From an uncultured Clostridium sp. (GTDB lineage: Bacteria; Bacillota_I; Bacilli_A; RF39; UBA660), in NCBI GenBank assembly GCA_946402315.1, contig CAMIWC010000005.1, positions 854 through 64,853 on the forward strand: 64,000 nt of DNA, in the 5' to 3' direction. A program made the translations under genes and the position numbers. Shown piece after piece: positions 4,960-64,000 of this stretch (positions are counted from its first letter, which is position 1; each line of letters opens with the position of its first letter). The notes below the pieces were generated by a model that made no database searches, was not told where the DNA came from, and saw only the letters and a list, made by a program, of their open reading frames with translations.

Positions 4960-4962
4960 TTA

Positions 4963-43996: not shown

Positions 43997-44004
43997 GTTA
44001 ACTC

Positions 44005-44473: not shown

Positions 44474-44529
44474 AGCCTAATCCCTTTCTCTATTATTAAT
44501 TATACCTTTTAAGAGGTTTATATTCAATA

Positions 44530-46080: not shown

Positions 46081-46151
46081 AACTACCTCAATAACTAGTT
46101 ATAAAATACCATAAATATTTGTAATATGCTATACTTTAGGTAGGTGATATT

Positions 46152-47021: not shown

Positions 47022-47038
47022 AAAAGACTTAGTCTTTT

Positions 47039-47644: not shown

Positions 47645-47715
47645 ATTATCTCTCCTTTTCTGGTATAATAATAGTATATTTAGAAACGACTATGGTCGCC
47701 TTAAGGGGGACAATT

Positions 47716-48192: not shown

Positions 48193-48213
48193 AAAAGAGC
48201 TAAGAAATTAGCT

Positions 48214-49401: not shown

Positions 49402-49537
49402 CTAGGTTTCCCCCTTTTTGCACGATGTATTCTATCATAAATAATCAAATATATTAATTAATAACTATTATTAGTTTGATTTTTTGTTATATAATAACAT
49501 TTTAGTAAAATAAAAAGACTCTTTCGAGTCCTTTTTA

Positions 49538-50005: not shown

Positions 50006-50038
50006 ATACCCTCCTAATATAATTATATCATTAAATAC

Positions 50039-50503
50039 TTATTTAAAGACAATAGATTTAACCATCTTAGTAGTAGGCTTCCTATTATTAAGATATTTTT
50101 TAATTTTATTATCTAAATTATTTAAATTATTAATATTACTAAGAATCGTATCTATATCTTTATTACTAATCCTAATATCATGATCTAAATACTTTCTATA
50201 AACAATCGGACTAACTCCCATTACTTTTTTAAACATTTCAGAATAATACTCTAATGAATAAAATCCATTATTAAAAGCTATAGATATAATATAGTTATCA
50301 TACTTATAAAATGAAAGACTATTAAAAATTCTCATACTATTGACATATTCAAATATAGTTAAATCTAGTTCTTTTTTAAATCTTTTCATTATATAAGTTT
50401 TATTAAAATAAAATATATTAGATAGTTCATCAATAGTAATCTCTTTATTAATGTTTTTATTTAGATAAGTAAGTATATTACAGACTAATTCATTAGAAAA
50501 CAT
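50039..50503 (-). CDS. AraC-family HTH transcriptional regulator (DNA-binding domain only)
   Basis: ITIDELSNIFYFNKTYIMKRFKKE...IAFNNGFYSLEYYSEMFKKVMGVSP is a double HTH of AraC type. Confidence 0.75.
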   Translation of the reverse strand: MFSNELVCNILTYLNKNINKEITIDELSNIFYFNKTYIMKRFKKELDLTIFEYVNSMRIFNSLSFYKYDNYIISIAFNNGFYSLEYYSEMFKKVMGVSPIVYRKYLDHDIRISNKDIDTILSNINNLNNLDNKIKKYLNNRKPTTKMVKSIVFK

Positions 50504-50598
50504 CTAATCACCAAATTTATTATAACGCAAAAAGCCATTATTGTTTAAATATAATTTAAAAAGCCATTGTATACTTAAGTCATGAAAGGGGGATATGT

Positions 50599-51942
50599 AT
50601 GGCATATTCAAGATGGGCTAGTAAAGAAGAAATAATTAATAAAACTACCCAAATTAGTTATGATTCTAACATAAAAAAATCAGGAATTGAGATTATGTAT
50701 GATGATAATTATCTATATATAGATGATAGAGAAGCACATAATCTTATTGTAGGAGCTACTGGTTCTGGTAAAACACAAGCTACTATGTTACCTCAAATGA
50801 GACTTGCTATTAAAGCAGGAGAATCATTTGTAGTAAATGACATCAAAGGAGAAATATATAAAATCCTAAGTGGAGAATTAAAAAAACAAGGATACAAAAC
50901 ATATGTAATTAATCTAGTTGATACCAGCAAAGGAAATAACTACAATCCTTTATACTTACCTTATAAATTATATAAGAGTGGAGAAAAAGATAGAGCATTA
51001 GAAATGATTGAAAATGTAGGTTATTATTTATTAGCATCAGAAACAAGTAAAAATGAGGATCCATTCTGGATTAATTCTGCTATTAATCTATTTACTGGAT
51101 TAACACTATATTTGTTTGAGAATGCAAAAGAAGAAGAAATAAATATTAACAGTTTATCATTACTTGCAAACGAAGGGGAAAAGCTAGGAAAATATATTAG
51201 AACACTAGATAAAAGTTCATTAATATACATTTATCTATCTGGTATATTAGAAGCACCAAATGAAACTAAGGGATCAATTATAGCCGTATTTAAACAAAGA
51301 ATTAAACTTTTCACTACAAAAGAAGGATTGTCTAGAATACTATGTAACAATAATATAGACATAGAAAATATTCAAAAAGAAAAAACAGCTTTATTTATAA
51401 TAAATGAAAATAAAACTATTACAAAAGATCTAGTATCATTAATAATAGATCAATGTTACTATATGGAAAATATTAATCCAGATACTTCTAGAAGATTAAA
51501 CTTCTATATAGATGATTTTGAAAATATTAGTTCTATTAGAAACTTTGTAAATATTTTAAATATATCTAGAGGAAACAATGTTAGATTTAATATTTACTTA
51601 AAGAGTTTCTTAGAATTAGATAATCTATATGGCAAAGATACTGCCGAATTAATAAAAATGACATTTGGAAATATTATATATTTACTTGCAAATGACATTG
51701 AAACACTACAACAAATATCAAAACTTTGTGGTAGATTGGATGAAAATACTAGATTAATCTCTGAAGAAGAATTAAAAACTATGGGATATTTTGAAGCGAT
51801 TATTATTGCTCCAAGAATGTATCCAATCAAAACCAAACTATTACCAGACTACCAAATTGATTGGCAATTTGAAAAAGAACCGGTTGAACAACCAAACCTT
51901 GAATACACTAATGTTGAATTATACACAATTAAAGAGGATTAA
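50599..51942 (+). CDS. TraG/VirD4-family type IV coupling protein homolog lacking an N-terminal membrane anchor
   Basis: HNLIVGATGSGKTQATMLP Walker A, VVNDIKGE, and Walker B-like LNFYIDDFE. No TM helices. Confidence 0.7.
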   Translation: MAYSRWASKEEIINKTTQISYDSNIKKSGIEIMYDDNYLYIDDREAHNLIVGATGSGKTQATMLPQMRLAIKAGESFVVNDIKGEIYKILSGELKKQGYKTYVINLVDTSKGNNYNPLYLPYKLYKSGEKDRALEMIENVGYYLLASETSKNEDPFWINSAINLFTGLTLYLFENAKEEEININSLSLLANEGEKLGKYIRTLDKSSLIYIYLSGILEAPNETKGSIIAVFKQRIKLFTTKEGLSRILCNNNIDIENIQKEKTALFIINENKTITKDLVSLIIDQCYYMENINPDTSRRLNFYIDDFENISSIRNFVNILNISRGNNVRFNIYLKSFLELDNLYGKDTAELIKMTFGNIIYLLANDIETLQQISKLCGRLDENTRLISEEELKTMGYFEAIIIAPRMYPIKTKLLPDYQIDWQFEKEPVEQPNLEYTNVELYTIKED

Positions 51943-51977
51943 TCCTCTTTTTTTGTTATAATAATATTGGTGATAAC

Positions 51978-52694
51978 ATGGATGATATAAAAGAATTACA
52001 AAGAATAATAGACCAATCCGATAATATAGTATTTTTTGGAGGAGCAGGAGTATCTACCGAAAGTGGTCTTAAAGACTTTAGAGGTAAAAATGGTTTATAT
52101 AAAGAAATAGATACTAATTATCCTCCTGAATACTTACTAAGTATTAAATGTTTACTAAAAGAACCAGAATTATTCTTTAAATATTATCGAAAGAACTTAG
52201 ATTCTTCTAACATAGAACCAAATATCACACATAAATATTTAAAGAATTTGGAAGATGAAGGAAAACTAAAAGCAATTGTAACTCAAAATATAGATGGACT
52301 CCATCAAAAAGCTGGATCTAAAAATGTATTAGAAATACATGGTACTACATATAGAAATTATTGTATTAATTGTAGAATGGAATATCCTAATGATTATATC
52401 TTTAAGAGTAAAGATATACCTAGATGTATATGTGGAGGTATAATTCGTCCTGATGTAGTTTTATATGGTGAAATGTTACCAGAAGCATATAGTCTAGCAG
52501 TATCATATATTATGAAAGCAGAAGTATTAATAGTTGCTGGTACTTCTTTAACAGTTGAACCTGCAGCTAGCCTTATTAAATACTTTAATGGAAAACATTT
52601 AATAATTATAAATAATACTCCTACTCTATATGATAGCTATGCTGAATTAGTAATTAATAAACCTCTTGGAGAAATATTTTCTAAGTTAAAATAA
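51978..52694 (+). CDS. cobB: NAD-dependent protein deacylase (Sir2/CobB)
   Basis: GAGVSTESGLKDFRG, QNIDGLH, HG, and the zinc ribbon CINC...CICGG. Confidence 0.9.
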   Translation: MDDIKELQRIIDQSDNIVFFGGAGVSTESGLKDFRGKNGLYKEIDTNYPPEYLLSIKCLLKEPELFFKYYRKNLDSSNIEPNITHKYLKNLEDEGKLKAIVTQNIDGLHQKAGSKNVLEIHGTTYRNYCINCRMEYPNDYIFKSKDIPRCICGGIIRPDVVLYGEMLPEAYSLAVSYIMKAEVLIVAGTSLTVEPAASLIKYFNGKHLIIINNTPTLYDSYAELVINKPLGEIFSKLK

Positions 52695-52718
52695 AAAACT
52701 AACTAAAAAGTTAGTTTT
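52695..52718. terminator. Bidirectional terminator hairpin, ACTAAC/GTTAGT family (variant copy 1)
   Basis: AAAACTAAC-TAAAAA-GTTAGTTTT between convergent cobB and the next gene. The minus gene's stop lies in the right arm. Confidence 0.6.
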
Positions 52719-53778
52719 TCATTTCTAATTTTTTTACCAAAGCTGTAGCTCTTACTCTACCACTTGCTGTTACTTTTTCTTCACGTGAATAATAACCAAT
52801 ACCTTGTCTTCTTGAGTAATCACCAACCATTGGTCTATCATGATATTCTAACAAGAACCATTTATCTCTTTCTCTATCATAAATAAAGTCAAATCCACAT
52901 ATTATTCCAAGTTCAGATTCAAATTGCTTATGAACATCTTTAGCAGATTGTACTAATTCGTGGAATTGATATGTATCTATACCATGTGATAATAATAATT
53001 CTTTTTCAAATCTTGAATAAGAATTATCAAATAATAGAACATTCTTACCACCAGAGCATGTATTAGAAACAATTGATTTAGTACTCAACTTAAATGTATC
53101 TCCTAATAAAAAACCTAATAACGAAGTCCTATCATCTAATGGTTCTGTTTCATTATATTTTAATGCTCCATATAATAAATCTCCAGATGATGAAGTTAAT
53201 AGCCTTACTGTAGTATTATATTGTGATGGAGTTGGAATATATTCTTGAATTCTAAAATTACGTTTTAAATACCCATCATAATCTTTTAGTCCTCCAAAAA
53301 AATTAAGTTTTGCAATTCTACTAATAAATTCTTTATTTAATAATAAAGAACAAGCATTAATTAAGTTATCATAATCTTCTTCAGTAGCAATTAAAAATTT
53401 TTCTCTACCACAGTTTTGGTTTTCATTTTTAAACACGAATGGCAATCTATATCTATGATTAACTAAAGCATCAAAATCAAAAAAATAAGTATTGGGTATA
53501 GCAAATCCTCTATCGTCCAATTTACCATCTATTTCGCTATGAACTAAAGTTAAATACTCTTCTTCTGTAGTACATTTATAATCTTGCCTTCTACCAGTTA
53601 CATATATTGTTGATGCATCGGCATATCTAATATCTCTAACTATTCTATAACCATGACGAACTAAACTAACATATAACTTTAGGTCAGTTTCTTCCATTCT
53701 TAGATAAATCGCATGTTCATTACCATCTTCTGGATTTATAAAATCTGGTAATTCATCATAAGAAATAATTCTCTCCAT
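52711..53778 (-). CDS. ATP-grasp-like protein (uncertain)
   Basis: PFVFKNENQNCGREKFLIATEEDY and FDFIYDRERDKWFLLEYHDRPMVG resemble ATP-grasp central and C-terminal motifs. Confidence 0.4.
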   Translation of the reverse strand: MERIISYDELPDFINPEDGNEHAIYLRMEETDLKLYVSLVRHGYRIVRDIRYADASTIYVTGRRQDYKCTTEEEYLTLVHSEIDGKLDDRGFAIPNTYFFDFDALVNHRYRLPFVFKNENQNCGREKFLIATEEDYDNLINACSLLLNKEFISRIAKLNFFGGLKDYDGYLKRNFRIQEYIPTPSQYNTTVRLLTSSSGDLLYGALKYNETEPLDDRTSLLGFLLGDTFKLSTKSIVSNTCSGGKNVLLFDNSYSRFEKELLLSHGIDTYQFHELVQSAKDVHKQFESELGIICGFDFIYDRERDKWFLLEYHDRPMVGDYSRRQGIGYYSREEKVTASGRVRATALVKKLEMKN

Positions 53779-53877
53779 AGCCTCAACCCCTCTTTTTTAC
53801 GCTGCATATTATATCAAAAATACTTAAAAAAGTCAATTTTAGCAAAAAATGGTATAATAATTTTAGGAGTGATTATT

Positions 53878-54750
53878 ATGATTTATCTTAAAAAATTGGG
53901 ACTTCCAAGTGAAGAAAACGAAGATGAAATGATTAATTCTAAAGTAAATATGCATAATAATTTTTATCCATTGAGAATCTTCCCAGAAAAACAATTAAAA
54001 AATATTTCTTTTGAGCCTATAACTATTTTTTATGGTGGTAATGGTTCTGGTAAAACAACAATTTTAAATATAATAAGTGATACTATTAATGCTTCTAAAA
54101 AAAATATCGACAATAGAAGTGAGTTCTTTAAACGATATGTTGGTATATGTAAACAACAATACGAAATAGTAAATCAAAATGAATGTAAAAGTATTAAATA
54201 CATATCAAGTGATGATGTATTTGATTATTTATTAGATTTAAGAGCAATAAACTCTAGTGTTAATAGAAGAAAAGAAGATTTAGTAAATGAGTACTTTGAA
54301 TATAAAAATTCACCATCAGGTACATATAATTCAGGAATAGATCAATATGAAGATTTAAAAAATAAAGTTGATTCAAATAGAATGACTGTATCTAAATATG
54401 TTAGAACTAGACTAAGTAACAATAATATTATTCAAGAATCTAATGGTGAAACAGCATTAGATTTTTGGCAAAAAGAAATTGAAGATAATTCTATTTATAT
54501 TATTGATGAACCAGAAAATAGTTTATCAGCTGAAAATCAATTAAAATTAAAACAATTTATTGAAGAATCAGCAAGATTTTACAACTGCCAATTTATAATC
54601 GCAACCCATTCTCCATTTTTATTAGCTTTAGAAGGAGCAAAAATATATGATCTTGATAGTATTCCAGCAAAAGCGAAAAAATGGACGGAACTAGATAATG
54701 TTAGAGTGTATTATCAATTTTTTGCGGATAATAGAGACAAATTCGAATAG
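53878..54750 (+). CDS. ABC/SMC-like AAA_21-type ATPase (stand-alone)
   Basis: FYGGNGSGKTTILN Walker A, LSAENQ signature-like, IYIIDEPE Walker B and ATHSP H-loop. Start ATG with SD AGGAGTG. Confidence 0.75.
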   Translation: MIYLKKLGLPSEENEDEMINSKVNMHNNFYPLRIFPEKQLKNISFEPITIFYGGNGSGKTTILNIISDTINASKKNIDNRSEFFKRYVGICKQQYEIVNQNECKSIKYISSDDVFDYLLDLRAINSSVNRRKEDLVNEYFEYKNSPSGTYNSGIDQYEDLKNKVDSNRMTVSKYVRTRLSNNNIIQESNGETALDFWQKEIEDNSIYIIDEPENSLSAENQLKLKQFIEESARFYNCQFIIATHSPFLLALEGAKIYDLDSIPAKAKKWTELDNVRVYYQFFADNRDKFE

Positions 54751-54776
54751 AAAACACTAACAAATGTTAGTGTTTT
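54751..54776. terminator. Bidirectional terminator hairpin, CACTAAC/GTTAGTG family (copy 2)
   Basis: AAAACACTAAC-AAAT-GTTAGTGTTTT, identical over 26 nt to copy 3. Confidence 0.7.
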
Positions 54777-54787
54777 TAATTATTATT

Positions 54788-55585
54788 TCAACTCATAAAC
54801 TTATTTAAATAATCAAGATAATAATTAAAATCCTCTCTATCATATTTATAAGTTCTACACATTCTAATTATAAATGTGATATACATAATAGCCTTTTTAT
54901 ACTCTAAGTCTACATTAAAATATTTTAATAAATCATTGAAACTTACATCTTTAAAGATATGATAATCAGAATAAATCGCAAAGAAAAAATCATATAAAGG
55001 ATCTCCTACAAGTCCCATCGGATCTATAAAGAATAGTTCATTATTATTGATAACAAAGTTATGTGTTCCAAAGTCACCATGTAATAAATACTTATCTATT
55101 TTATTGTTTGAAACGATATTTAATGCTTTATTAATACTATCCATATCAAATTTGTTTTCATCTAACAATTCTATTGAGTAATCAATTTCATCTTTTAAAA
55201 AATCAGTCCAAGTCTTATGATCTTCAAATAAATATCCAAAGCCATCATAGTCTATTTTTTTATAATTAGATGTTGTTTCATATAATATATTGATAATTCT
55301 ATTTACTTCAATACTATTATCATATTTATTTCCTTGTATAAAAGAAAGACACGCATAACTTAAATCATAGTTTATATAATATAGTTTTTGAAATCTTTTA
55401 CCATTATATTTAGAAAAGAATTCATTATATACATCTAATTCTTGTTTATTAGTTTTCTTAATTAAATACTCATTATTAATACTAAAAACTATAGCTTCAG
55501 TAGCGCCTTCAGAAAAAACTTTAATATCATCTTCTGATATTTTAATATTTAACTTTTCTTCAATATCATCTAATAATTCTTTCAT
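54788..55585 (-). CDS. Aminoglycoside/choline-kinase-like phosphotransferase (APH family)
   Basis: LLHGDFGTHNFVI...FIDPMGLVGDPLYDF is the Brenner/catalytic loop plus DFG-like motif. Confidence 0.8.
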   Translation of the reverse strand: MKELLDDIEEKLNIKISEDDIKVFSEGATEAIVFSINNEYLIKKTNKQELDVYNEFFSKYNGKRFQKLYYINYDLSYACLSFIQGNKYDNSIEVNRIINILYETTSNYKKIDYDGFGYLFEDHKTWTDFLKDEIDYSIELLDENKFDMDSINKALNIVSNNKIDKYLLHGDFGTHNFVINNNELFFIDPMGLVGDPLYDFFFAIYSDYHIFKDVSFNDLLKYFNVDLEYKKAIMYITFIIRMCRTYKYDREDFNYYLDYLNKFMS

Positions 55586-55780
55586 AATGTTCACCTAAAA
55601 TCATTATATTAGATACTATAATTTAATACAATAATACGTGTGATATAATAACCATGTGTAATATAATAAAAATGTAAAAAAATGAGTGCAATTACATAAA
55701 AATATAAAACGCACTTAAAAGTTGGTAGAATAAAAAAGATATTAATTATAAACTTAAAGCATGAAAGGAGAGAAAATCTA

Positions 55781-56698
55781 ATGAAATTTGGAGATAATCT
55801 AAAAAAAATAAGAAAAATGAGAAAAATATCTCAGGAGGAATTAGCAGATAAGTTAGGAGTATCTAGACAATCTGTATCTAAATGGGAAACAGGAGAAAAT
55901 TACCCTAGCATGACTAATATTATGTGTTTATGCACTATATTTAAATGTAATATCAATGAGTTAGTACATGAAGATATGGATGATATAAATTCATTAGATG
56001 AAGAAATTAAAATGAGTGTTGTTAAGTTTAAAAGTGAAAAACAAAAGAAAGTTAGAGTATTATCAACTATTATTGCTGATATTGCTAAAGTAGGATGGAT
56101 TATTTCAATTGTATTAGTATGTTTCGTCGCAATTGGAACAATTTTATTACCAATTGCCTTAAAAGATATTGAAATTAAAGATAATAAAATAGTATCTGAT
56201 GGTAAAATTGTTGAAATTATTGAAGAAAAAGATAAACTAGTTTTAAAACATAAAAATGAAGTACTTGCCGATGTAAGAGATCAAAAATCAATTTCTTTAA
56301 TCAAAGAAGTAATAAATGGTAATTTAAATAACAAAGGATTACTAATTGGATGCTGCGAAGTTGCATTAATAACTATGATAGTATGTTTAATATTAGCTGT
56401 ATTTATGTTTAAGAAATTAGAAAAGTTATTCAATAACATAAAAAAAGGCGATACTCCATTTACTTTAGAAAATGTTGAATATATTAAAAAAATAGCTTAT
56501 ATCATGATAGCTTTAATCATTCTTCCAAATATAGGTGGAACAATATTTGAAATTATTTTGAAACAAGATTTAGACATTTCTTTTGAACCATTTAGCATTT
56601 TAGAAGTCTTAATCATATTTGTTATCTCATATATATTTGAATATGGATATGAAATACAATTAGATTCTAAAGGAAAAATGTATGGAGATATAAAATAA
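55781..56698 (+). CDS. XRE-family HTH fused to a DUF2975-like membrane domain
   Basis: The N-terminus ISQEELADKLGVSRQSVSKWETGENYP is an XRE HTH. The C-terminal multi-TM region with GDTPFTLENV...IFEYGYEIQLDSKGKMY is paralogous to ORF 58550-59281. Confidence 0.7.
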   Translation: MKFGDNLKKIRKMRKISQEELADKLGVSRQSVSKWETGENYPSMTNIMCLCTIFKCNINELVHEDMDDINSLDEEIKMSVVKFKSEKQKKVRVLSTIIADIAKVGWIISIVLVCFVAIGTILLPIALKDIEIKDNKIVSDGKIVEIIEEKDKLVLKHKNEVLADVRDQKSISLIKEVINGNLNNKGLLIGCCEVALITMIVCLILAVFMFKKLEKLFNNIKKGDTPFTLENVEYIKKIAYIMIALIILPNIGGTIFEIILKQDLDISFEPFSILEVLIIFVISYIFEYGYEIQLDSKGKMYGDIK

Positions 56699-56709
56699 TT
56701 ATAAATAAA

Positions 56710-56735
56710 AAAACACTAACAAATGTTAGTGTTTT
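56710..56735. terminator. Bidirectional terminator hairpin, CACTAAC/GTTAGTG family (copy 3)
   Basis: AAAACACTAAC-AAAT-GTTAGTGTTTT. The stop of the minus-strand NUDIX gene abuts the T-run. Confidence 0.7.
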
Positions 56736-57306
56736 ATTTATTAATATAATTTAAATATGATTTTATTAAATCAGCATCCATAAGATTATTTGGTACATCT
56801 TTTGGAGTAAAAAATCTTAATCTTTTAGTTTCAGAATCTCCTTTTAGATTAGAATCATCTTCTAAAGATACATCGACTAAATATAATGAAGTATTATTAT
56901 ATACTATATCTCCATTAGGATAACTATTCTTTCTACTTTCTCCTGATAATGTATCAATAAGTATTATTTCATTTGGATCTATTCTTAATCCAGTTTCTTC
57001 ATATGCTTCTCTAACCGCAGTAAATCTTAGATCTTCTCCTAAATCTTGGCATCCTCCAGGAAGGCCCCATTTATCTCTATCAGTTCTTTCTTGTAGAAGA
57101 ATCTCTCCTTTTTCATTTCTTATTATTATAGCTGCACCTGTTTGAATAAATGGTATATGACTAATTCTATCATCAAGAGCCATTCTAAATAAAACAGGAT
57201 AGCCACCATAATTAGCGCTTAAATTTAGTAGTTCTTCTTCACTTAAACTTTGTACTAATTCTACAAATTCTTCATGAGTATATTCTCTCATCTTTTTATA
57301 ACTCAT
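56734..57306 (-). CDS. NUDIX hydrolase
   Basis: Nudix box GGCQDLGEDLRFTAVREAYEETGL. Confidence 0.9.
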   Translation of the reverse strand: MSYKKMREYTHEEFVELVQSLSEEELLNLSANYGGYPVLFRMALDDRISHIPFIQTGAAIIIRNEKGEILLQERTDRDKWGLPGGCQDLGEDLRFTAVREAYEETGLRIDPNEIILIDTLSGESRKNSYPNGDIVYNNTSLYLVDVSLEDDSNLKGDSETKRLRFFTPKDVPNNLMDADLIKSYLNYINK

Positions 57307-57404
57307 ACTATGCCTCCATACATTTTTATTATAGCATAAAAAATAAATACTATTTGTTTGTAATAAAAGTATAAATACTATATACTTATAATAGAGGTGA
57401 GATA

Positions 57405-58145
57405 ATGAAAAAGAAAAAGACTGCTTTAATAATAGTAATTGTTTGTTTACTTGTTATTATAGGTGCAGTTTTATATTTTGTTTTATTTAGAAACAGAACA
57501 GTTAAAGTTAAATCTATAGAAGTACCAAATGAAAAGGTAATTCTAGAGTATGGAGAAAAGCATAAAGTACAATATACAATTAAACCAGAAAATGCTACTA
57601 ACAAAGAAGTTAAAATAACATCTGAAAATGGATTATTAACTAACAAAAAGAATGCTGAAGAATTTGTTACAGTTAATAATACCGTTCATGGTGATGATAA
57701 AATATGTATTACAAGTGTAGAAGATGAAAGCATTAAAACTTGTTATGAAATACACGTTAATCCACAACCTTTTTCAGAAAGAATGCAAGAATTAGGATTT
57801 ACTAAAAATGGTTATAAATATACTAATGTACATACTGATTTTACTCAAGAGTTAGATGTTAGCCAAAGATATTTAAAAGTTACAAGTAAAAGTGGTAACG
57901 TATCTTTAGAATATATTTATTATTATAGGGCAGGATATGGTGAATCAACACAAAAATCCGGAGGATTTACTGTGGAATGGTTATATAGAGATGATACAAA
58001 TCGAGCAACTTGTGCTGCATCATCTTATTATTCAACATTCTGTAATTATACAAGCGAATCTAATCTAATAAATACGTTCCAAACTATAAAAGAAAGTGTA
58101 GAAGTGCTTATAAGCGATTATACAGATGCTGAATTATTAACATAA
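57405..58145 (+). CDS. Membrane-anchored protein with an Ig-like (Big_2-type) domain
   Basis: N-terminal TM. The segment KSIEVPNEKVILEYGEKHKVQYTIKPENATNKEVKITSEN is Big_2-like. Confidence 0.5.
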   Translation: MKKKKTALIIVIVCLLVIIGAVLYFVLFRNRTVKVKSIEVPNEKVILEYGEKHKVQYTIKPENATNKEVKITSENGLLTNKKNAEEFVTVNNTVHGDDKICITSVEDESIKTCYEIHVNPQPFSERMQELGFTKNGYKYTNVHTDFTQELDVSQRYLKVTSKSGNVSLEYIYYYRAGYGESTQKSGGFTVEWLYRDDTNRATCAASSYYSTFCNYTSESNLINTFQTIKESVEVLISDYTDAELLT

Positions 58146-58149
58146 TATG

Positions 58150-58173
58150 AAACACTAACTATTGTTAGTGTTT
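58150..58173. terminator. Bidirectional terminator hairpin, CACTAAC/GTTAGTG family (copy 4)
   Basis: AAACACTAAC-TATT-GTTAGTGTTT. It encodes the last six codons and the TAG stop of ORF 58155-58511. Confidence 0.7.
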
Positions 58174-58511
58174 TTAATTGTTTTAGATAGACCTTTATCT
58201 TCTGTAGTTGGTGGTTTATTTTCTATAAACAATCCATATCTTATATCAAGTAAATGATACGAATGATTTTTTAAAATAGTACTTTCTTCTTTAGTTAAAT
58301 CAGGATTATCAAAACTACTTTCTTTAATCATTTCAGATATTTCATCTTTAGAATATCCTTTATCAAGTAAATCATCTATTTCTCCTACCAAGCCAACAGA
58401 ATACCCCATAAGTTTATCATTACCACAAAAAATAAAATCGTCATAAGAACCATACATTCCACCAAGCAATAAAGGAATAGATAATAATTTAGGTATATCA
58501 TCTTTACTCAT
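58155..58511 (-). CDS. Hypothetical protein (118 aa)
   Basis: ORF only. Its C-terminal KNTNNS-stop is read from the hairpin repeat. Confidence 0.4.
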   Translation of the reverse strand: MSKDDIPKLLSIPLLLGGMYGSYDDFIFCGNDKLMGYSVGLVGEIDDLLDKGYSKDEISEMIKESSFDNPDLTKEESTILKNHSYHLLDIRYGLFIENKPPTTEDKGLSKTIKNTNNS

Positions 58512-58549
58512 AGTATCACCTATAATAATTATAATATAAAAAAGAGAGA

Positions 58550-59281
58550 TTACTCATCTTTTGAGTAAATCTCTCCTTTTGTTTCAGTTTGTAATTTAGT
58601 ACCATATTCAAATACATAAACTGCAACAAATATTAATAGTATTTTTGCTATATCATTTAAACTTACAGAGAAGCTTGTATCAAATACAGAAGAAGCAATA
58701 ATACTTGAAGTTACAGATATAATAATTGAATATATAGATAATTTAGCAATACCTTTTAATAAATCAGTATTATCATTTGTAAATGGAGTTGTTTTATCAT
58801 GAATATTTTTAAAGAATAAATATACCTTCTTTAATATCTTTATCTCAATAAATAATAATACTATAGTAAGAGCTAATTCGATTTCAACAAACACAGTCAT
58901 TAGTTTTAAATCGTGTTTATCTAAATAACGTAATACTTCATCAATAGCTTCTACTTCACTCTTTTCATTTATTTCTTGTTTATCTGTTTCTTTACCTTTT
59001 TCATATATTTCAAAGCTATCAGGTGTACGATTCAAATAGAATTCAGTACCAAATATATTAAAATATCTTTTTTCATCTTCTTTAGTAACCTTTATATTAG
59101 CCATTAATAAAGGTATACAAACCATTCCAATAAATACTCCAACCATTCCAATTATTACAAATACTTTCCATATTTTAGCAACTATATAAAATATTTTACT
59201 AATAGTTTTTAAATGGCTTTGATCTTTTGCTTCAATTGAATAATCTATTTCTTTTTCTTTCTTAGTTTCTTCTTTTTTCAT
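58550..59281 (-). CDS. DUF2975-like membrane protein (paralog of the C-terminal half of 55781-56698)
   Basis: TTPFTNDNTDLLKGIAKL...VFEYGTKLQTETKGEIY parallels the other copy. Multi-TM. Confidence 0.6.
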   Translation of the reverse strand: MKKEETKKEKEIDYSIEAKDQSHLKTISKIFYIVAKIWKVFVIIGMVGVFIGMVCIPLLMANIKVTKEDEKRYFNIFGTEFYLNRTPDSFEIYEKGKETDKQEINEKSEVEAIDEVLRYLDKHDLKLMTVFVEIELALTIVLLFIEIKILKKVYLFFKNIHDKTTPFTNDNTDLLKGIAKLSIYSIIISVTSSIIASSVFDTSFSVSLNDIAKILLIFVAVYVFEYGTKLQTETKGEIYSKDE

Positions 59282-59357
59282 AATATCCTCCTATGTATTT
59301 ATTGTATCACAAGATTAATAATTTATGATATGATACATATAGAAAGAAGATGAAGAA

Positions 59358-59987
59358 ATGGAATTAATTGATAGCCAAAATAATAATATAGATGTTAGTC
59401 ATAACGATTATGTACCAATAGCAATATTAGACACTTTCCAAATGGGAAATTTTGTTCGTGAATCATTATTAGATGAACTTCCGCCAGATTATAAATATAG
59501 AAACTTAGTTAATTGTACAAATAACGAAAATGGGCCAATATATAAAAGCGAACCCGGTATAGATTTATCTATTGCATCGCTTGCAGCACTTAATTACGGT
59601 ATTTCCGGTAACGGTGGAACAGAAACAACACTTTGGACTTTACACTACGGTAGATTTACTTTTTTTGATGAAAGCGGATATTTTGTAGAGTATGAAAAAG
59701 AGCGTCCATTATATGAACGCAAATTTGATAACACACAAACAGGAATAATTCGAATTGATTATAGATCGCCTTTAGGGAATTTTGTAATTAATCAAAATCA
59801 AATTAATAGTAAATTATTCGAAATATATTTTTCAAAAGACATGTCTAAAGCATTATATGATAGATTAGCTAAGGGATTAGGAAAAGCATTAGAATTTAAA
59901 GAAAATGTTGTAGATAATATTTTTATTGGAGAAGGCAAAGTCAATTTGATAGATGGCGGAGACGAAGAAAAGCATAAAGGTATATAA
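59358..59987 (+). CDS. Hypothetical protein (209 aa), compositionally atypical
   Basis: The ORF is visibly richer in G/C codons (CCG, GCG, CGC, GGC) than its neighbours. No recognizable motif. Confidence 0.45.
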   Translation: MELIDSQNNNIDVSHNDYVPIAILDTFQMGNFVRESLLDELPPDYKYRNLVNCTNNENGPIYKSEPGIDLSIASLAALNYGISGNGGTETTLWTLHYGRFTFFDESGYFVEYEKERPLYERKFDNTQTGIIRIDYRSPLGNFVINQNQINSKLFEIYFSKDMSKALYDRLAKGLGKALEFKENVVDNIFIGEGKVNLIDGGDEEKHKGI

Positions 59988-60257
59988 TAGTAAATATTAA
60001 TACTTTATATTATTAATAAAAAGGAAGCAAATTGCTTCCTTTTAATGTATTAGGATTTGTAAAAAAATGTTGACATAAGAAAGTCTTAACAAAAAATAAA
60101 CAATTGTAATGTTATATGAATGCAAAAACTATATAGTTATTAAAATGATTTAGGAAAAACCTAAAGCTTTTAATTTCACATAGCAGGATTTTATAGGAAA
60201 TTCAATTTTTTTTACACATTTAAATTGTATTATTGCTAAAATGATTATAAAAAAATT

Positions 60258-60290
60258 AAAAAACACTAACAATTAAAGTTAGTGTTTTTT
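60258..60290. terminator. Bidirectional terminator hairpin, CACTAAC/GTTAGTG family (copy 5)
   Basis: AAAAAACACTAAC-AATTAAA-GTTAGTGTTTTTT. Confidence 0.7.
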
Positions 60291-60296
60291 TATTCA

Positions 60297-60329
60297 AAAT
60301 GGCACAATAATCATAGGTGTTTAAAACTT
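60297..60329. repeat. 33-nt box, copy A (4 mismatches relative to B/C)
   Basis: AAATGGCACAATAATCATAGGTGTTTAAAACTT, immediately 3' of the GNAT gene stop and 11 nt from the hairpin arm. Confidence 0.7.
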
Positions 60330-60330
60330 T

Positions 60331-61074
60331 TTATTTAATTAATTTTTCAAAAGCATTTGCATTTAATATTGTATTAGAAATAAATTTACCTTTATAAAAG
60401 TTAGCCCAGTTATTAAATACACATGGTGCATTCTTAGCTTTATCTAATGAATCTATTTTAATAAAGTTTAATTTAATTCCTTTATCTTTAGCATAATCAG
60501 ATAACTCTTGAATTTCATATTCTACATATGGACATTCGTTAGAATAATAAATAGTAAAATCTTGACTATCTATTTCCATCTTTCTAGCGTTATCATTAAA
60601 CTTAGGTGTCTCTTTATCATCAAATTGTAATACCATTAATTCATAATCATTAATTGTATCTACTACTTTAAATCCATAATGTTCGAAGAATTTCTTATCT
60701 CCAATAAATGGCTTCTTCTTTTGTGTAACTATTGTACAAACACCACTCATTTTTTTATTCTTTGCATCTTGGATAGCATATTCTAATAATTCTTTTCCAA
60801 TGCCTTTACCTTTAAAACTTCCAGCAACCCATAAACAATAAATATACATATAATTTTTACCATTAATAGGAACCCATGATGTTTCAATTGGTTCATATTC
60901 AATAAAGATTTTCCCTCTAGCATTTAGTTTTCTAAATACATGTCCATCTTTTAATTTACTTTTAATCCATTCTTTCTTTTTATCTACACCATATTGATGT
61001 TTAGGATCTCCTATAGCACAACATATATGCTCTTCTTCAATATTCTTTTCATCTAAATTAATGTACTCATTCAT
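60331..61074 (-). CDS. GNAT N-acetyltransferase with a C-terminal YoaP-like domain
   Basis: GNAT motif A WVAGSFKGKGIGKELLEYA. The C-terminal CPYVEYE...APCVFNNWANFYKGKF resembles the YoaP-like domain. Confidence 0.75.
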   Translation of the reverse strand: MNEYINLDEKNIEEEHICCAIGDPKHQYGVDKKKEWIKSKLKDGHVFRKLNARGKIFIEYEPIETSWVPINGKNYMYIYCLWVAGSFKGKGIGKELLEYAIQDAKNKKMSGVCTIVTQKKKPFIGDKKFFEHYGFKVVDTINDYELMVLQFDDKETPKFNDNARKMEIDSQDFTIYYSNECPYVEYEIQELSDYAKDKGIKLNFIKIDSLDKAKNAPCVFNNWANFYKGKFISNTILNANAFEKLIK

Positions 61075-61093
61075 AACTTACACCTCTATTAAT

Positions 61094-61102
61094 ATTATAG
61101 CA
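61094..61102 (-). promoter_or_regulatory. Extended -10 (TGCTATAAT) directly upstream of the GNAT gene
   Basis: The reverse complement of ATTATAGCA lies 19 nt before the ATG, with SD GAGGTG in between. Confidence 0.4.
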
Positions 61103-61103
61103 T

Positions 61104-61127
61104 AAAAAAAAGTAGCCAAAGCTACTT
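61104..61127 (-). terminator. Minus-strand intrinsic terminator in the GNAT/methyltransferase intergenic region
   Basis: AAGTAGC-CAAA-GCTACTT, followed on the minus strand by T7-8. Confidence 0.55.
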
Positions 61128-61135
61128 CATAAACA

Positions 61136-61168
61136 AAATGGCACGGTAATCATAGGGGTTTCAAACTT
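61136..61168. repeat. 33-nt box, copy B
   Basis: AAATGGCACGGTAATCATAGGGGTTTCAAACTT, identical to copy C. Confidence 0.8.
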
Positions 61169-61196
61169 GTTATACTTTATTAAAATAGTATGACAA
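61169..61196 (-). promoter_or_regulatory. Candidate minus-strand sigma-A promoter (TTGTCA-16-TATAAC) reading into box B
   Basis: Reverse complement of TGACAA (61191-61196) and GTTATA (61169-61174). Confidence 0.4.
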
Positions 61197-61201
61197 CAGT
61201 A

Positions 61202-61210
61202 TGATATAAT
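61202..61210 (+). promoter_or_regulatory. Extended -10 (TGATATAAT) for the methyltransferase gene
   Basis: Lies within the conserved ~95-nt module, 18 nt upstream of the ATG with SD AAGGAGG. Confidence 0.5.
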
Positions 61211-61228
61211 TGATAAGGAGGCTTTCTT

Positions 61229-61987
61229 ATGAATAAAAAAGATTTTATTGAAATTAATAAAAACGGATGGAATACATTAATAACAAATAATAAACCATTT
61301 TCTAATACTATATTACCAGAATATGGCCCATTTCTTAAAAGAAATGAAAACGAAATGAATATTATGAATAATATTAATGGTGCTAAAGTATTAGATTTAG
61401 GCTGTGGTGAAGGTGAATCACTAGAATATTTATTCAATAAAGGTGCTAAAGAAATATGGGGATTAGATATTTCTAAGGAACAAATAAATAAGGCTCAAAT
61501 TAGGTTTCCCCAATTCAAAGATAATTTTTTAATCTCACCAATGGAAGAAGAAGTTAATATACCAAATAATTACTTTGATTATATTATTTCTATTTTTAGT
61601 ATAGGATATACCTCTGATTTAAATAGTACTTTTAAAAATTCATATAAATATTTAGCAAATGATGGTAAGTTTATAATTAGTTGGACTCATCCATTTTATT
61701 ATTGTTTAGATATAGTAGATGATAAGGTAGTCATAAATAGATCTTATTTCAATGAAGAATCTGAAATTATAACAAAAGGTCCTGATAAAGTTAATCTTGC
61801 TCAAAATAATATGATGATATCAACAGTTATAAATACAGCAAGTGATAATGGATTTTATTTAGATAAATTATATGAAGAAGAAACAATATTAAAAGATGAT
61901 GTAAATGGATATAAAAGTACATTTTGGAGAAAAGAAAAGACAGTTAATTGTCCAAGCACAATAATTTTTGTATTTAAAAAACACTAA
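61229..61987 (+). CDS. Class I SAM-dependent methyltransferase
   Basis: VLDLGCGEGES motif I and GLDIS motif II. The stop codon TAA lies inside the hairpin arm CACTAAC. Confidence 0.85.
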   Translation: MNKKDFIEINKNGWNTLITNNKPFSNTILPEYGPFLKRNENEMNIMNNINGAKVLDLGCGEGESLEYLFNKGAKEIWGLDISKEQINKAQIRFPQFKDNFLISPMEEEVNIPNNYFDYIISIFSIGYTSDLNSTFKNSYKYLANDGKFIISWTHPFYYCLDIVDDKVVINRSYFNEESEIITKGPDKVNLAQNNMMISTVINTASDNGFYLDKLYEEETILKDDVNGYKSTFWRKEKTVNCPSTIIFVFKKH

Positions 61988-62005
61988 CATTAAAGTTAGT
62001 GTTTT
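61977..62005. terminator. Bidirectional terminator hairpin, CACTAAC/GTTAGTG family (copy 6)
   Basis: AAAAACACTAAC-ATTAAA-GTTAGTGTTTT. Confidence 0.7.
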
Positions 62006-62013
62006 AATTTACT

Positions 62014-62046
62014 AAATGGCACGGTAATCATAGGGGTTTCAAACTT
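62014..62046. repeat. 33-nt box, copy C
   Basis: AAATGGCACGGTAATCATAGGGGTTTCAAACTT. The preceding hairpin plus 11-nt spacer plus TGGCA closely matches the 3' flank of tRNA-Trp. Confidence 0.8.
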
Positions 62047-62074
62047 ATTATAATTGATTATAACAATATGACAA
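62047..62074 (-). promoter_or_regulatory. Candidate minus-strand sigma-A promoter (TTGTCA-16-TATAAT) reading into box C
   Basis: Reverse complement of TGACAA (62069-62074) and ATTATA (62047-62052). Confidence 0.45.
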
Positions 62075-62079
62075 CAGCA

Positions 62080-62088
62080 TGATATAAT
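62080..62088 (+). promoter_or_regulatory. Extended -10 (TGATATAAT) for the AlkD-like gene
   Basis: Same conserved module as at 61202-61210. Confidence 0.5.
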
Positions 62089-62111
62089 TGATACGTGAGG
62101 TTGTGATATAA

Positions 62112-62783
62112 ATGAGTATATATGAAAGACTGTTATCTTATCAAGATGAAAAATATAAAGACTTTCAAAGCAAACTTATCCCAAATATAGATAAAAAAAC
62201 AATTATAGGTGTTAGAACACCACAAATGAGAAAAATTGTTAAAGAAGTATATGGTACAAAAGAATCAACTATATTTTTACAAACTTTGCCACATCAATAT
62301 TATGAAGAAAATCTTATTCATTTCTTTTTAATTTCAAAGATTAAGGACTTTGATGAGTGCATAAAGGAAGTAGAAAGATTTTTGCCATACATTGATTGCT
62401 GGCCGGTTTGTGATCAAGCAACACCTTTGGTGTTTAAGAAAAATCATGATAAACTCCTTCCACTAATAAAAAAATGGATAAATTCCAATCACGTATATAC
62501 CGCTAGATTTGGTATACGTATATTAATGAATGAATATTTAGATAAAGATTTTAAGAATGAATATTTAGAATTAGTTGCATCTAAAACTGGAGAGGATTAT
62601 TATTTAAAAATGATGATTGCGTGGTATTTCGCAACAGCATTAGCTAAACAATATGATGCAACAATAAAATATATAAAAAATAGAAGTCTTGATCCATGGA
62701 TACATAAGAAAGCAATACAAAAAGCAGTAGAAAGTTATAGAGTATCAGATGAACATAAAGAATATCTTAAAAAGTTTAGATAA
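62112..62783 (+). CDS. DNA alkylation repair protein (AlkD-like HEAT-repeat family)
   Basis: YKDFQSKLIPNIDKKTIIGVRTPQMRKIVKE and overall length and helical repeat layout typical of the DNA_alkylation family. Confidence 0.7.
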   Translation: MSIYERLLSYQDEKYKDFQSKLIPNIDKKTIIGVRTPQMRKIVKEVYGTKESTIFLQTLPHQYYEENLIHFFLISKIKDFDECIKEVERFLPYIDCWPVCDQATPLVFKKNHDKLLPLIKKWINSNHVYTARFGIRILMNEYLDKDFKNEYLELVASKTGEDYYLKMMIAWYFATALAKQYDATIKYIKNRSLDPWIHKKAIQKAVESYRVSDEHKEYLKKFR

Positions 62784-62807
62784 ACTAGTAAAAGTATAAA
62801 CAAATAA

Positions 62808-62836
62808 AAAAGCACTAACAATTAAGTTAGTGTTTT
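62808..62836. terminator. Terminator hairpin, CACTAAC/GTTAGTG family (copy 7), terminating tRNA-Trp and the AlkD-like gene
   Basis: AAAAGCACTAAC-AATTAA-GTTAGTGTTTT, 11 nt from the tRNA 3' end. Confidence 0.7.
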
Positions 62837-62847
62837 AATATTCTAAA

Positions 62848-62921
62848 TGGCAGGGGATGAGAGAATCGAACTCCCAACTAAAGTTTTGGAGACTCCTATT
62901 ATACCATTTAACTAATCCCCT
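62848..62921 (-). tRNA. trnW: tRNA-Trp (anticodon CCA), CCA 3' end encoded
   Basis: Manual cloverleaf: acceptor AGGGGAT/ATCCCCT, D stem GTTA/TAAT, anticodon stem GGAGT/ACTTT with loop CTCCAAA, T arm GGGAG-TTCGATT-CTCTC, discriminator G, then CCA. Confidence 0.85.
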
Positions 62922-62939
62922 AAAAATTTGTACATAAAT

Positions 62940-62967
62940 ATTATAACATAAATTTATTTATGCACAA
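62940..62967 (-). promoter_or_regulatory. Candidate promoter of tRNA-Trp (TTGTGC-16-TGTTATAAT)
   Basis: Reverse complement of GCACAA (62962-62967) and ATTATA (62940-62945) with TG at -14/-15. It lies 18 nt upstream of the mature 5' end. Confidence 0.5.
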
Positions 62968-62979
62968 GTTTTTTTATTA

Positions 62980-64000
62980 TTACTCCTCTTCTTCTAATTT
63001 TCTATAATCTACTTTACCAATCATAGTTTTAGGAAGAGATTCTCTAAATACATATTCCTTAGGTAACATATATTTAGCTAAATTCTTTTCACAATAATCT
63101 TTTATATCTTTCTTAACCTTTGCAGTTGGTTTAATACCTTCTTTAAGTACAATATATGCCTTAGGTACTTGTACTTTATATGGATGAGGTACACCTACTA
63201 CACAAGAGTTTAAGATATATTCATGTTTATTTAAGACATCTTCTAAGTGAGATGGGAAGACATTATATCCAGATACAATAATAAGTCTTTTAATTCTTTG
63301 AACAAAGAATAAGATACCATCTTCATTCATATATCCCATATCTCCAGTATGTACCCATACTTTACCTTTTTTATCTCTTTCCAAAATATCGTTAGTTTCT
63401 TTTTCATTATTTAAGTATCCCATCATTACAGATGGACCACTTACTACTATTTCTCCTTTTTCACCAGGAGGGAGTTCTTCTTTAGTATTAACATCTATAA
63501 TCTTAAGATCATTACTTGGAAGAGGTATTCCTACTCCACCCATTACTTTAGCAGTTTCTCCAGTACTAAATATTATTCCTCCACTAGCTTCAGTAAGTCC
63601 ATATCCTTGAATAATTCCTTTAGGACTATGATGTTCTTCTAAAAACTTATTTACGGCGATATTTTTTTCTTCATTTAATGAGTCTCCTCCAGAAACTACA
63701 TACTTAACATTAGATAAGTCTACTTTATCCATATGTTTATTAGATATCATTGCTTCAAAAAGAGTTGGTACTCCTGGTATAACTGTTGGTTTATATTTAG
63801 TTAATAATTTATCAAATCTAGATGCATCAAATTTAGGTACTAGTATTACTTCTAATCCTTGTGATAAAGGGAAATGCAAACACTCTACTAATCCAAAACA
63901 ATGAAAGAATGGAAGTATAGATAAGAATGAATCACTTTTATTAATATCTGGAAGAGCAATCTTAGCTTGTTCAGGAACTACATTCAAATTACCATTAGAT
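62980..64000 (-). CDS. AMP-binding acyl-CoA synthetase (long-chain fatty acid--CoA ligase-like), 5' end outside the window
   Basis: YGLTEASGG, TGDMGYMNEDG and the C-terminal KVDYRKL motif. The frame stays open to the window edge. Confidence 0.85.
   Translation of the reverse strand, partial: SNGNLNVVPEQAKIALPDINKSDSFLSILPFFHCFGLVECLHFPLSQGLEVILVPKFDASRFDKLLTKYKPTVIPGVPTLFEAMISNKHMDKVDLSNVKYVVSGGDSLNEEKNIAVNKFLEEHHSPKGIIQGYGLTEASGGIIFSTGETAKVMGGVGIPLPSNDLKIIDVNTKEELPPGEKGEIVVSGPSVMMGYLNNEKETNDILERDKKGKVWVHTGDMGYMNEDGILFFVQRIKRLIIVSGYNVFPSHLEDVLNKHEYILNSCVVGVPHPYKVQVPKAYIVLKEGIKPTAKVKKDIKDYCEKNLAKYMLPKEYVFRESLPKTMIGKVDYRKLEEEE

Follow-up and report, generated by a model that had tools for sequence, protein, structure and literature searches.

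The last 10 kb of the window, a 64,000-nt stretch of contig CAMIWC010000005.1 from an uncultured Clostridium sp. of the RF39 lineage (assembly GCA_946402315.1; positions are those of this stretch throughout), form an island of small accessory genes that ends at a tRNA-Trp gene. This island was probably built up at the CCA end of tRNA-Trp by tandem accretion of mini-cassettes that have no recombinase of their own and are moved in trans by a large serine recombinase (LSR). The evidence is the anatomy of the junctions between cassettes, their linkage to tRNA-Trp, the modular shuffling of the units among relatives and the attachment (att) sites of LSR elements, all of which are read directly from the DNA. 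The window locus is also present on an ENA metagenome contig (L001, a contig of a metagenome-assembled genome, MAG; ENA ERZ12289775/CAMIXP01); the other comparison loci are given L numbers as well.

The diagnostic repeat of the island is a 29-nt box ending in the last five bases of the tRNA, TGCCA, and not the hairpin on which the preliminary description of the window had centred. On the tRNA strand this box (box1) has the consensus AGTTTTAAACCCCTATGATTATCG-TGCCA and is found at 60300, 61139 and 62017 (boxes A, B and C; Table 1), with the variants AGTTT(G/T)AAAC(C/A)CCTATGATTA(C/T)(C/T)G-TGCCA. The box ends in G-TGCCA and tRNA-Trp in C-TGCCA, the last five bases being alike. The spacings from box A to B, from B to C and from C to the tRNA are 839, 878 and 831 bp, with one gene per interval, and the units 60300-61138, 61139-62016 and 62017-62847 each hold a single cargo gene between box-TGCCA seams. 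The recurrence of a hairpin-spacer-TGGCA unit at 60258-60304 and 61977-62021, and behind another hairpin at 61109-61143, had been noticed before and holds; it is part of a longer repeat, which runs 24 nt further (TGGCAC(G/A)(G/A)TAATCATAGG(G/T)GTTT(C/A)AAACT). The box C module is 88% identical to the box B module across 90 nt, divergent promoters included; in the former, TTGTCA-16-TATAAT (62074-62047, 11/12) is directed into the box and an extended -10 element into the AlkD-like gene. At the tRNA end, hairpin 7 is placed as a terminator for both tRNA-Trp and the convergent AlkD-like gene, and a like module follows tRNA-Trp in relatives. [quoted passage not shown]

A profile of the box gives 148 matches, which correspond to 140 box1 junctions, and 107 box-bearing loci from rumen or gut MAGs and metagenomes; the whole junction census comprises 200 junctions in 122 loci, including these 140. 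A metagenome scan for the box returned 98 stretches, nearly all from the rumen, with many contigs stopping at the repeat, and a scan of viral contigs gave 0 matches. Box1 carries ~2 bits at each of its 29 positions, while its flanks are unrelated and the spacer carries 0.6-0.8 bits per position. No paper on the box or on a tRNA-Trp cassette array was found in the literature. A truncated box1, AGTTTTAAACCCCTATGATTAT, followed by unrelated AGAGGAT.., is seen in L124 (719-740) and L210 (368-347), where the break lies 2 nt before the TGCCA core.

The box is tied to one particular tRNA gene. Of the 32 loci in which a box and a tRNA gene occur together, 31 have tRNA-Trp, on the strand of the box. 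The first box lies 238-3098 bp 3' of tRNA-Trp, and boxes within 3.1 kb of tRNA-Trp, locked to its strand, are present in 30 loci; in seven loci the sequence extends 3 kb or more upstream of the box and shows no tRNA-Trp. The right parts of the junctions are interchangeable, with the same repertoire behind tRNA-Trp ends (..C-TGCCA) and box ends (..G-TGCCA): a spacer (consensus TTTAGAATATTA) and a terminator of the CACTAAC, AAGTAGC plus promoter, CTCTAAC, TCGAAC or TTTAGG type. The AAGTAGC hairpin with its promoter module, for example, stands in loci other than the window after box1 in 27 junctions and after tRNA-Trp in 8. On the left side, box1 is joined by further arm families that end in G-TGCCA (box1b and boxes 2-6). 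L166 carries two different tRNA-Trp genes on the same strand (1834-1907 and 11594-11667), 9.7 kb apart, with box5, box1 (twice) and box4 junctions between them.

Successive junctions delimit 78 units with a median length of 750 bp (interquartile range 604-886), 70 of them no longer than 1.2 kb. Exactly one ORF is found in 67 of the 77 units of up to 3 kb, 37 in reverse and 30 in forward orientation. Forward units are ordered hairpin-promoter-gene-stop-box, and reverse units hairpin (the gene's own terminator)-gene-bidirectional promoter-box, with the conserved promoter either abutting the box or sitting ~22 nt upstream of it. The cargo among 148 ORFs of at least 160 aa in box-bearing loci includes 9 GNAT, 7 XRE, 5 methyltransferase, 5 NUDIX and 4 HAD proteins, among others. 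The arrays are short, with between one and four boxed units, and continue into small accessory genes that have no box; the window is built in the same way.

Homology with relatives is confined to single units. The AlkD-like unit and the tRNA are 92.5-93.7% identical to L141 and L164, up to hairpin 6/box C, beyond which the units are not the same. For the methyltransferase unit, L212 is 89.9% identical across 61136-62014, a single unit that runs from box B and stops short of box C, and has another neighbour on the side of the box. L148 matches the GNAT unit with box B at 93% over 60961-61176 and has another cassette upstream, and L170 has the GNAT gene without boxes. The flanks of L151 and L185 are 94-96% identical (the tRNA-Trp region, and 1658 bp from the box on) around different cassettes of 949 and 423 bp, respectively. 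Eleven isolated high-scoring segment pairs have 93-97% identity, of which eight (480-1243 bp) are taken as cassette-sized with non-homologous flanks; most of their ends lie at a junction, close to one, or separated from one by the width of a box plus hairpin. The box-less part of the island has gene-wise homology only, for the APH gene with L163 and L182 and for the NUDIX gene with L008, L203 and L190. The APH homolog of L163 reads stop-box1-TGCCA-spacer-hairpin and the window copy stop-hairpin, a comparison which suggests that the box-less part consists of units that have lost their seams.

Complete integrative elements occupy the same junction in relatives. LSRs with Resolvase, Recombinase and Zn-ribbon domains are encoded in L090 and its extension L224, L223, L226, L218 and L222, and L090/L224 comprises a 90-aa ORF, the LSR, a Mob_Pre relaxase and cargo, which constitute a mobilizable element. 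The LSR elements insert exactly after the CCA of tRNA-Trp, tRNA-Met, tRNA-Thr or transfer-messenger RNA (tmRNA). In L226, the left end ATGTGATAAGAAGCTCGAAC abuts tRNA-Met (..GC-TACCA), and the right end GGTTGTTCTACACAATGCAGATTCG-TACCA is followed by AATTAATAATTACTTTGACA..TTTTTT; the last stretch represents the native trailer and terminator of tRNA-Met, present without interruption in L225, so that an attL/attR/attB triplet is available. L225 carries the same element too, at a distance of 4.4 kb from tRNA-Met and preceded by a box2-like arm with a TACCA end. L223 has an LSR with 82% identity to the L090 enzyme, and its element abuts tRNA-Trp (..CCTGCCA) with a left end of the kind seen in L226. 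The L224 element follows box2-GGTGCCA and closes 11.5 kb on in AGTTGTTCTACACAATTATTACTCG-TGCCA; ends of this type, box5, are found on small cassettes in L156 and L166 as well. L218 and L222 are the tRNA-Thr and tmRNA versions, with right ends in ..ACTG-GCACCA. A common rule holds for the right ends: an (A)GTT motif comes first, then ~20 nt and a G, and finally the terminal 5-6 nt of the target RNA gene, CCA included, in copy. The layout of box1 matches this rule exactly, and the seams of the window have the same arm-core-trailer layout as attL and attR of the proven integrative and mobilizable elements (IMEs). The LSRs of L224 (10001-11881) and L226 (846-2726) are 98.7% identical, with TGCCA sites for the former and a TACCA site for the latter, which suggests that the short core rather than the LSR protein sets the target; the right ends of the two elements differ chiefly in 10 nt beside the core.

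Three further features of these loci are recorded here. In L222 (2593-11173), a tmRNA is followed by an LSR-Mob_Pre element ending in ..ACTG-GCACCA at 8811, behind which a recombinase-less ABC-transporter module is stacked that ends in AGTT..GCACCA plus a terminator at 11173. A second, distant LSR family, with 32% identity to the L090 type, is present in L188 (22-5689) and L192 (6-5133), whose elements end in box3-TGCCA, with boxed cassettes behind them; an HNH gene and two C5 DNA methylases belong to the L188 element as well. 'Box2' lies within a ~100-nt repeat (L090, 7640-7557 and 5200-5105 on the minus strand; L225, ~9350-9440) with a promoter-like site of its own, TTGACT..TATGATATAG, and two small hairpins (GGAATTGAATTCC and TGACACCTAGTCA), which ends in the local core TGCCA or TACCA and may represent either a gene for a small structured RNA or a secondary attachment site that is portable.

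Taken together, the seams would be attachment-site scars, with the box as the element-side arm, TGCCA as the shared core within which strands are exchanged, and the spacer and hairpin as the other arm, derived from the tRNA trailer or from the next cassette. On the tRNA strand, a cassette would start after ..TGCCA with the spacer and hairpin, and thereby re-equip the tRNA or the previous cassette with a terminator; it would then provide one gene with its own promoter and end in the 29-nt box, which copies the last five bases of the tRNA. The best candidate for the recombinase that would have moved the box1 cassettes in trans, those of the window included, is the LSR of the mobilizable elements (90-aa ORF, LSR, Mob_Pre relaxase and cargo). 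Candidate attP sequences are box5-TGCCA-TAATGATAGGAAGCTCGAAC and box1-TGCCA-TTTAGAATATTAAAACACTAAC. Counted from the 3' A of the tRNA, the outer edge of its T-loop motif GTTCGA is at -24; in the terminator, the bottom strand of the 5' arm reads GTTAGTG (CACTAAC), GTTCGAG (CTCGAAC) or GTCAGAG (CTCTGAC), with arm ends at +19 to +23 past CCA. Placed in this way, the two motifs would form inverted repeats centred on CCA, with the GTT of the element arms 2-4 bp further out. Such a layout resembles the half-site geometry of attB and attP known for LSRs. The hairpins at 52.7-58.2 kb are most simply explained as terminators of older units that lack their boxes, and we infer that the box-less part derives from boxed cassettes.

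The preliminary description had offered repeated insertion at the 3' end of tRNA-Trp as one of two readings. The idea is supported by the 31/32 linkage, the interchangeable modules, the cassette-wise homology and the integrative elements at the junction, and its reach is narrower than proposed: junction scars are present at the three tRNA-side units and the one decayed unit and absent from the hairpins at 52695-58173.

Several points weigh against accretion by an LSR. The four left hairpins (52695-58173) have no box or box remnant alongside, and the window and its MAG contig L001 show neither a recombinase nor a relaxase nor an excised form; window cassettes were seen neither as circles nor as empty sites. 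None of the LSR elements among the comparison loci has a box1 right end, these elements ending in box5 or box3 types, and, aligned without gaps, box1 agrees poorly with the proven element ends (10-12/26, shuffle p ~0.01-0.12). LSRs normally recombine attP with attB only, so that accretion assumes a regenerated or tolerated site for each insertion beside an occupied tRNA. The conserved promoters that read into the box of reverse cassettes are not explained by a pure DNA site. The hairpin also follows tRNA-Phe, tRNA-Thr, tRNA-Met and ordinary genes and occurs in unrelated phyla, among the matches listed in a scan of species-representative genomes. The comparison loci are MAG or metagenome contigs throughout, and many end at the repeat.

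A bolder form of the same explanation, which we regard as possible but put forward tentatively, is that the system is the serine-recombinase counterpart of an integron, in which several hundred different single-gene cassettes, all with a promoter and a terminator of their own, are captured, excised and reshuffled in trans by LSRs at the CCA of tRNA-Trp. Each cassette would then carry a complete miniature attP, composed of the box arm, the 5-nt copy of the tRNA end and the hairpin arm. The attB would be built of universal tRNA features, with the T-loop GTTCGA set against GTTAGTG or GTTCGAG as inverted repeats about CCA, and the 5-nt core would largely set the choice of target.

Homologous recombination could in principle move the cassettes with no site-specific enzyme, if the box, the promoter module and the hairpins served, with the tRNA gene, as 30-90 bp anchors for RecA-dependent swapping, for example after DNA uptake. 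We consider this unlikely. Breakpoints do fall anywhere in the conserved modules, with no single base to which they map: at the 5' edge of the box between the window and L148, at the edge of TGCCA between the window and L212, and, between L151 and L185, past a shared hairpin on the left and at the start of the box on the right. Most arrays also have no recombinase nearby; the top 25 Pfam families of the 148 array-locus ORFs include no recurrent one. However, RecA-dependent exchange does not explain why every seam ends in the last five bases of the tRNA, why at least six unrelated left-arm families end in G-TGCCA, why the array starts at the CCA of one particular tRNA, or why LSR elements with the same end architecture lie at the same junction, and anchors of 29 nt are short for efficient exchange by RecA.

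The box may alternatively be primarily an RNA, either a multi-copy small RNA or a module of the 3' untranslated region composed of a 29-nt single-stranded segment and a terminator, with the link to cassettes being secondary; this is somewhat less probable still. Consistent with it, the box is conserved far beyond its surroundings and is predicted to be transcribed in both classes of cassette, from the conserved outward promoter at the box in reverse cassettes (e.g., TTGTCA-16-TATAAT, 11/12) and through its position between stop codon and terminator in forward ones. Nevertheless, Rfam reports only the tRNA at the gathering threshold across the whole window and nothing credible at E<=10 in 59900-63000, and RNAalifold finds no conserved fold in 23 box copies with their upstream promoter region. 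An RNA function also leaves unexplained the strict strand and position link to tRNA-Trp, the copy of the tRNA 3' end, and the parallel arms ending in TGCCA, TACCA or CACCA according to the local tRNA or tmRNA. It is compatible with, and does not exclude, accretion of cassettes by an LSR. Two related candidates were tried and rejected. A mini-ORF in the box (ATG ATT ATC GTG CCA ..) fails on variants that have no ATG and on a Shine-Dalgarno-like GGAAAGG more than 25 nt away; a tRNA 3' half fails on an unpairable T-arm and acceptor and an ungapped identity to tRNA-Trp of 3/26.

The hairpins alone might reflect an ordinary variable region in which genes end in the favourite terminator of the lineage, whether convergent or inherited in an AT-rich genome. 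In the window, CACTAAC-N(3-9)-GTTAGTG occurs 6 times (54755, 56714, 58153, 60264, 61982 and 62813) against 0.00 expected from shuffles, and the relaxed core CTAAC..GTTAG gives 7 matches against 0.35 expected, the extra one being a variant at 52699. These counts bear out the earlier report of seven such hairpins, one of them variant, in the last 10 kb, and copies 2 and 3 do share the same 26 nt, AAAACACTAACAAATGTTAGTGTTTT. Each of the seven has a stem of 7-13 bp and a loop of 4-7 nt between an A-run and a T-run, stands 0-25 nt after a stop codon or the tRNA, and looks like an intrinsic (Rho-independent) terminator acting in both directions. Over positions 1-40000 and 44001-64000, which were scanned for further terminator-like hairpins, the other stems are AAAAAGACCTTWAAGGTCTTTTT (4939 and 10923), GTTCGT, GAGAGA, GGACTC, GAGCTAA and GAGGAT; the earlier statement that they differ from the island hairpins stands, while its addition that they are mostly AAGACC is only partly right, as several stem types are found.

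The favourite-terminator explanation draws on the presence of the hairpin behind many unrelated genes and other tRNAs, on its occurrence beside a Ham1/RdgB gene on a second contig of the same MAG, on the similar repetition of the AAAAAGACCTTWAAGGTCTTTTT terminator in the window, and on the four left hairpins that stand without a box. Among the matches listed, the hairpin follows tRNA-Trp in many MAGs of rumen Bacilli, Erysipelotrichaceae, Bacillales and Tenericutes, and the exact motif is found even in Chryseobacterium and Neobacillus. The preliminary description had allowed that the hairpin might be a terminator used genome-wide; this is partly so for the hairpin, which is not confined to the locus, and is not so for the box. 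We nonetheless judge the explanation very unlikely: six exact copies lie in 10 kb, all seven hairpins within 52.7-62.9 kb, against 0 exact copies in the first 52 kb; the three right hairpins sit in 45-90-nt repeats that include the box; and neither the linkage of box and tRNA-Trp nor the cassette-wise homology is explained. A second family of near-identical bidirectional terminators, AAAAAGACCTT(T/A)AAGGTCTTTTT, is present at 4939-4961 and 10923-10945, 6 kb apart, so the island is not alone in having repeated terminators.

An array of the integron kind, in which a tyrosine integrase acts on attC sites, or repetitive extragenic palindromes or miniature inverted-repeat transposable elements (REP/MITE) inserting between genes, is the least probable explanation: the cassette size, single genes, array form and AAC..GTT stems superficially recall attC (RYYYAAC/GTTRRRY) and many metagenome contigs break at the repeat, but no tyrosine recombinase was found by jackhmmer, with an XerD seed, in the window and 217 loci (~1.1 Mb altogether), the stems of 7-13 bp with 4-7-nt loops and T-runs are not 57-141-nt attC folds and belong to five or more unrelated sequence types, the cassettes have their own promoters and both orientations, and the repeats are strand-locked to the tRNA gene, without terminal inverted repeats or target duplications. 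The REP/MITE alternative of the preliminary description finds no support in the sampled loci, where the strand-locked repeats bound whole genes; the hairpin by itself is dispersed. Three other site types were discarded: a sigma-54 promoter TGGCAC-N5-TTGC, in which the -12 element is absent by eye; a dif/Xer-type site or attC R'/R'' boxes, as the arms, by eye, are not inverted repeats of the required form; and IS200/IS605-type ends, which would need a conserved subterminal hairpin where at least five hairpin types are present.

Among known systems, a model of tandem accretion has been described in which integrative and cis-mobilizable elements (CIMEs) gather at a single att site (Pavlovic 2004; Bellanger 2011, as cited in PMC5357655), and streptococcal IMEs with serine integrases insert almost always inside genes, not at tRNA 3' ends (PMC5357655). 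The accretion of ICEs (integrative and conjugative elements), IMEs and CIMEs, of which ICESt1/ICESt3 and the streptococcal IMEs are textbook cases, resembles the present arrays in that units stack at one target and internal seams are hybrid att sites; as in CIMEs, many members have no recombination or transfer genes and would rely on a resident or incoming element. The cassettes of the window, with their att-type flanks and without recombination or transfer genes of their own, would accordingly be classed as CIME-like non-autonomous elements from their sequence, and the island is not itself an IME of the LSR type, having neither an LSR ORF nor Mob_Pre. In contrast to CIME accretion, the units are miniature (median 750 bp, one gene), numerous and shuffled like cassettes, and the candidate enzyme is a serine recombinase, whereas that of ICESt1/ICESt3 is a tyrosine recombinase.

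The staphylococcal cassette chromosome (SCC) islands, which are inserted at the 3' end of rlmH (orfX) by the large serine recombinases CcrAB or CcrC, form tandem arrays in which the seams repeat the last bases of the gene and recombinase-less pseudo-SCC units stand among autonomous ones; both traits are shared with arrays of the window type. Unlike SCC, the target here is the CCA end of a tRNA with its terminator, the units are some ten times smaller, several families of element arms exist, and the system is known from sequence only. Prochlorococcus tycheposons are said to be tRNA-anchored islands formed by repeated insertion, with autonomous elements and cargo-only remnants bearing partial tRNA repeats, much as in these arrays; reportedly they use tyrosine recombinases or other integrases, are kilobases long and carry true tRNA 3' fragments, unlike the distinct box described here.

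Integrons share promiscuous, mostly single-gene cassettes of 0.5-1 kb beside a fixed site, ORF-less units, and a cargo of acetyltransferases, small enzymes and regulators. Their attC sites are imperfect palindromes of 57-141 nt with R''/L''-L'/R' boxes. By comparison, no IntI was found here and there are no attC folds, the cassettes have their own promoter and terminator and read in either direction, and the seams consist of linear sequence arms with a copy of the tRNA end, the conserved element being a non-palindromic 29-mer. The window array is thus not an integron by definition, since no intI and no attC sites were found.

If accretion by an LSR is correct, a fixed 'slot' behind tRNA-Trp would be where uncultured rumen and gut Bacilli, in many of which a similar modular stack recurs (MAGs and metagenomes), exchange small accessory genes, for instance those of regulators, acetyltransferases, methyltransferases and hydrolases of the NUDIX and HAD types. 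This would amount to integron-style capture of cassettes by the att sites of serine recombinases, with no resident integrase needed. An LSR family aimed at the CCA ends of tRNA and tmRNA genes, in which a short core apparently sets the target, may be of use as well, as pairs of LSR and att site are sought as genome-landing tools. In MAGs, the limits of such islands could be recognized simply by the box-TGCCA seams, which would also account for the assembly breaks at these places.

Table 1. Features of the tRNA-Trp island and its flank in the window, in order of position.
Feature	Position (nt)	Strand	Evidence or remark
cobB (SIR2 family), island flank distal to tRNA	51978-52694	+	Pfam
Box-less island part, ten small accessory genes in convergent and divergent pairs	52695-60148		hairpins at 52695-52718, 54751-54776, 56710-56735 and 58150-58173
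Decayed fourth junction: AAATTGAATTTCCTATAAAATCC-TGCTA (60208-60181), spacer, TTTAGG-type hairpin (60149-60166)	60149-60208	-	
Hairpin 5 and spacer	60258-60299		hairpin motif
Box A, immediately past the GNAT stop codon	60300-60328	-	nhmmer, 31 bits
Cassette 1 cargo, GNAT-YoaP acetyltransferase, forward	60331-61074	-	Pfam
tRNA-proximal end of cassette 1: spacer, AAGTAGC/GCTACTT hairpin (61109-61128), TGCTATAAT promoter of the GNAT gene	61075-61138		
Box B (61139-61167) and bidirectional promoter module	61139-61228	-	nhmmer box profile
Cassette 2 cargo, S-adenosylmethionine (SAM)-dependent methyltransferase, reverse	61229-61987	+	Pfam
Hairpin 6 and spacer, tRNA-proximal end of cassette 2	61977-62016		hairpin motif
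Box C (62017-62045; + strand TGGCA at 62017-62021) and two-way promoter module	62017-62111	-	nhmmer, 35 bits
Cassette 3 cargo, AlkD-like (DNA_alkylation), reverse relative to tRNA	62112-62783	+	Pfam, E=3.7e-15
Hairpin 7 (62808-62836) and 11-nt spacer, tRNA-proximal end of cassette 3	62808-62847		hairpin motif
tRNA-Trp(cca), array anchor	62848-62921	-	ARAGORN; Rfam tRNA, 60.9 bits; 3' end ..CCCCTGCCA at 62848-62856

Most of the gene labels given earlier agree with Pfam, namely the AAA_21/AAA_15 ATPase, XRE-DUF2975, NUDIX, GNAT-YoaP, SAM methyltransferase and DNA_alkylation (AlkD-like) proteins, as well as SIR2 in the flank. The 'ATP-grasp-like' protein (52711-53778) and the 'DUF2975 paralog' (58550-59281) have no Pfam match, and the APH/fructosamine kinase match is weak. 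An exact-protein look-up returned no record for the AlkD-like protein. That the window contains no integrase, as first described, is borne out by the absence of tyrosine and serine recombinases among its ORFs of at least 100 aa, and no Mob_Pre is present in the island.

On the flank distal to the tRNA, a cobB homolog (73% nucleotide identity) in L194 lies ~10.5 kb from a box1 in the same relative orientation, with different intervening genes. Just upstream of cobB and outside the island, a lone gene for a VirD4/TraG-type coupling protein of 447 aa (50599-51942, + strand) is present in the window and also in L001. The protein has T4SS-DNA_transf, TrwB_AAD_bind and TraG-D_C domains, and no other conjugation genes lie nearby; the gene may be the remnant of a mobilizable element.

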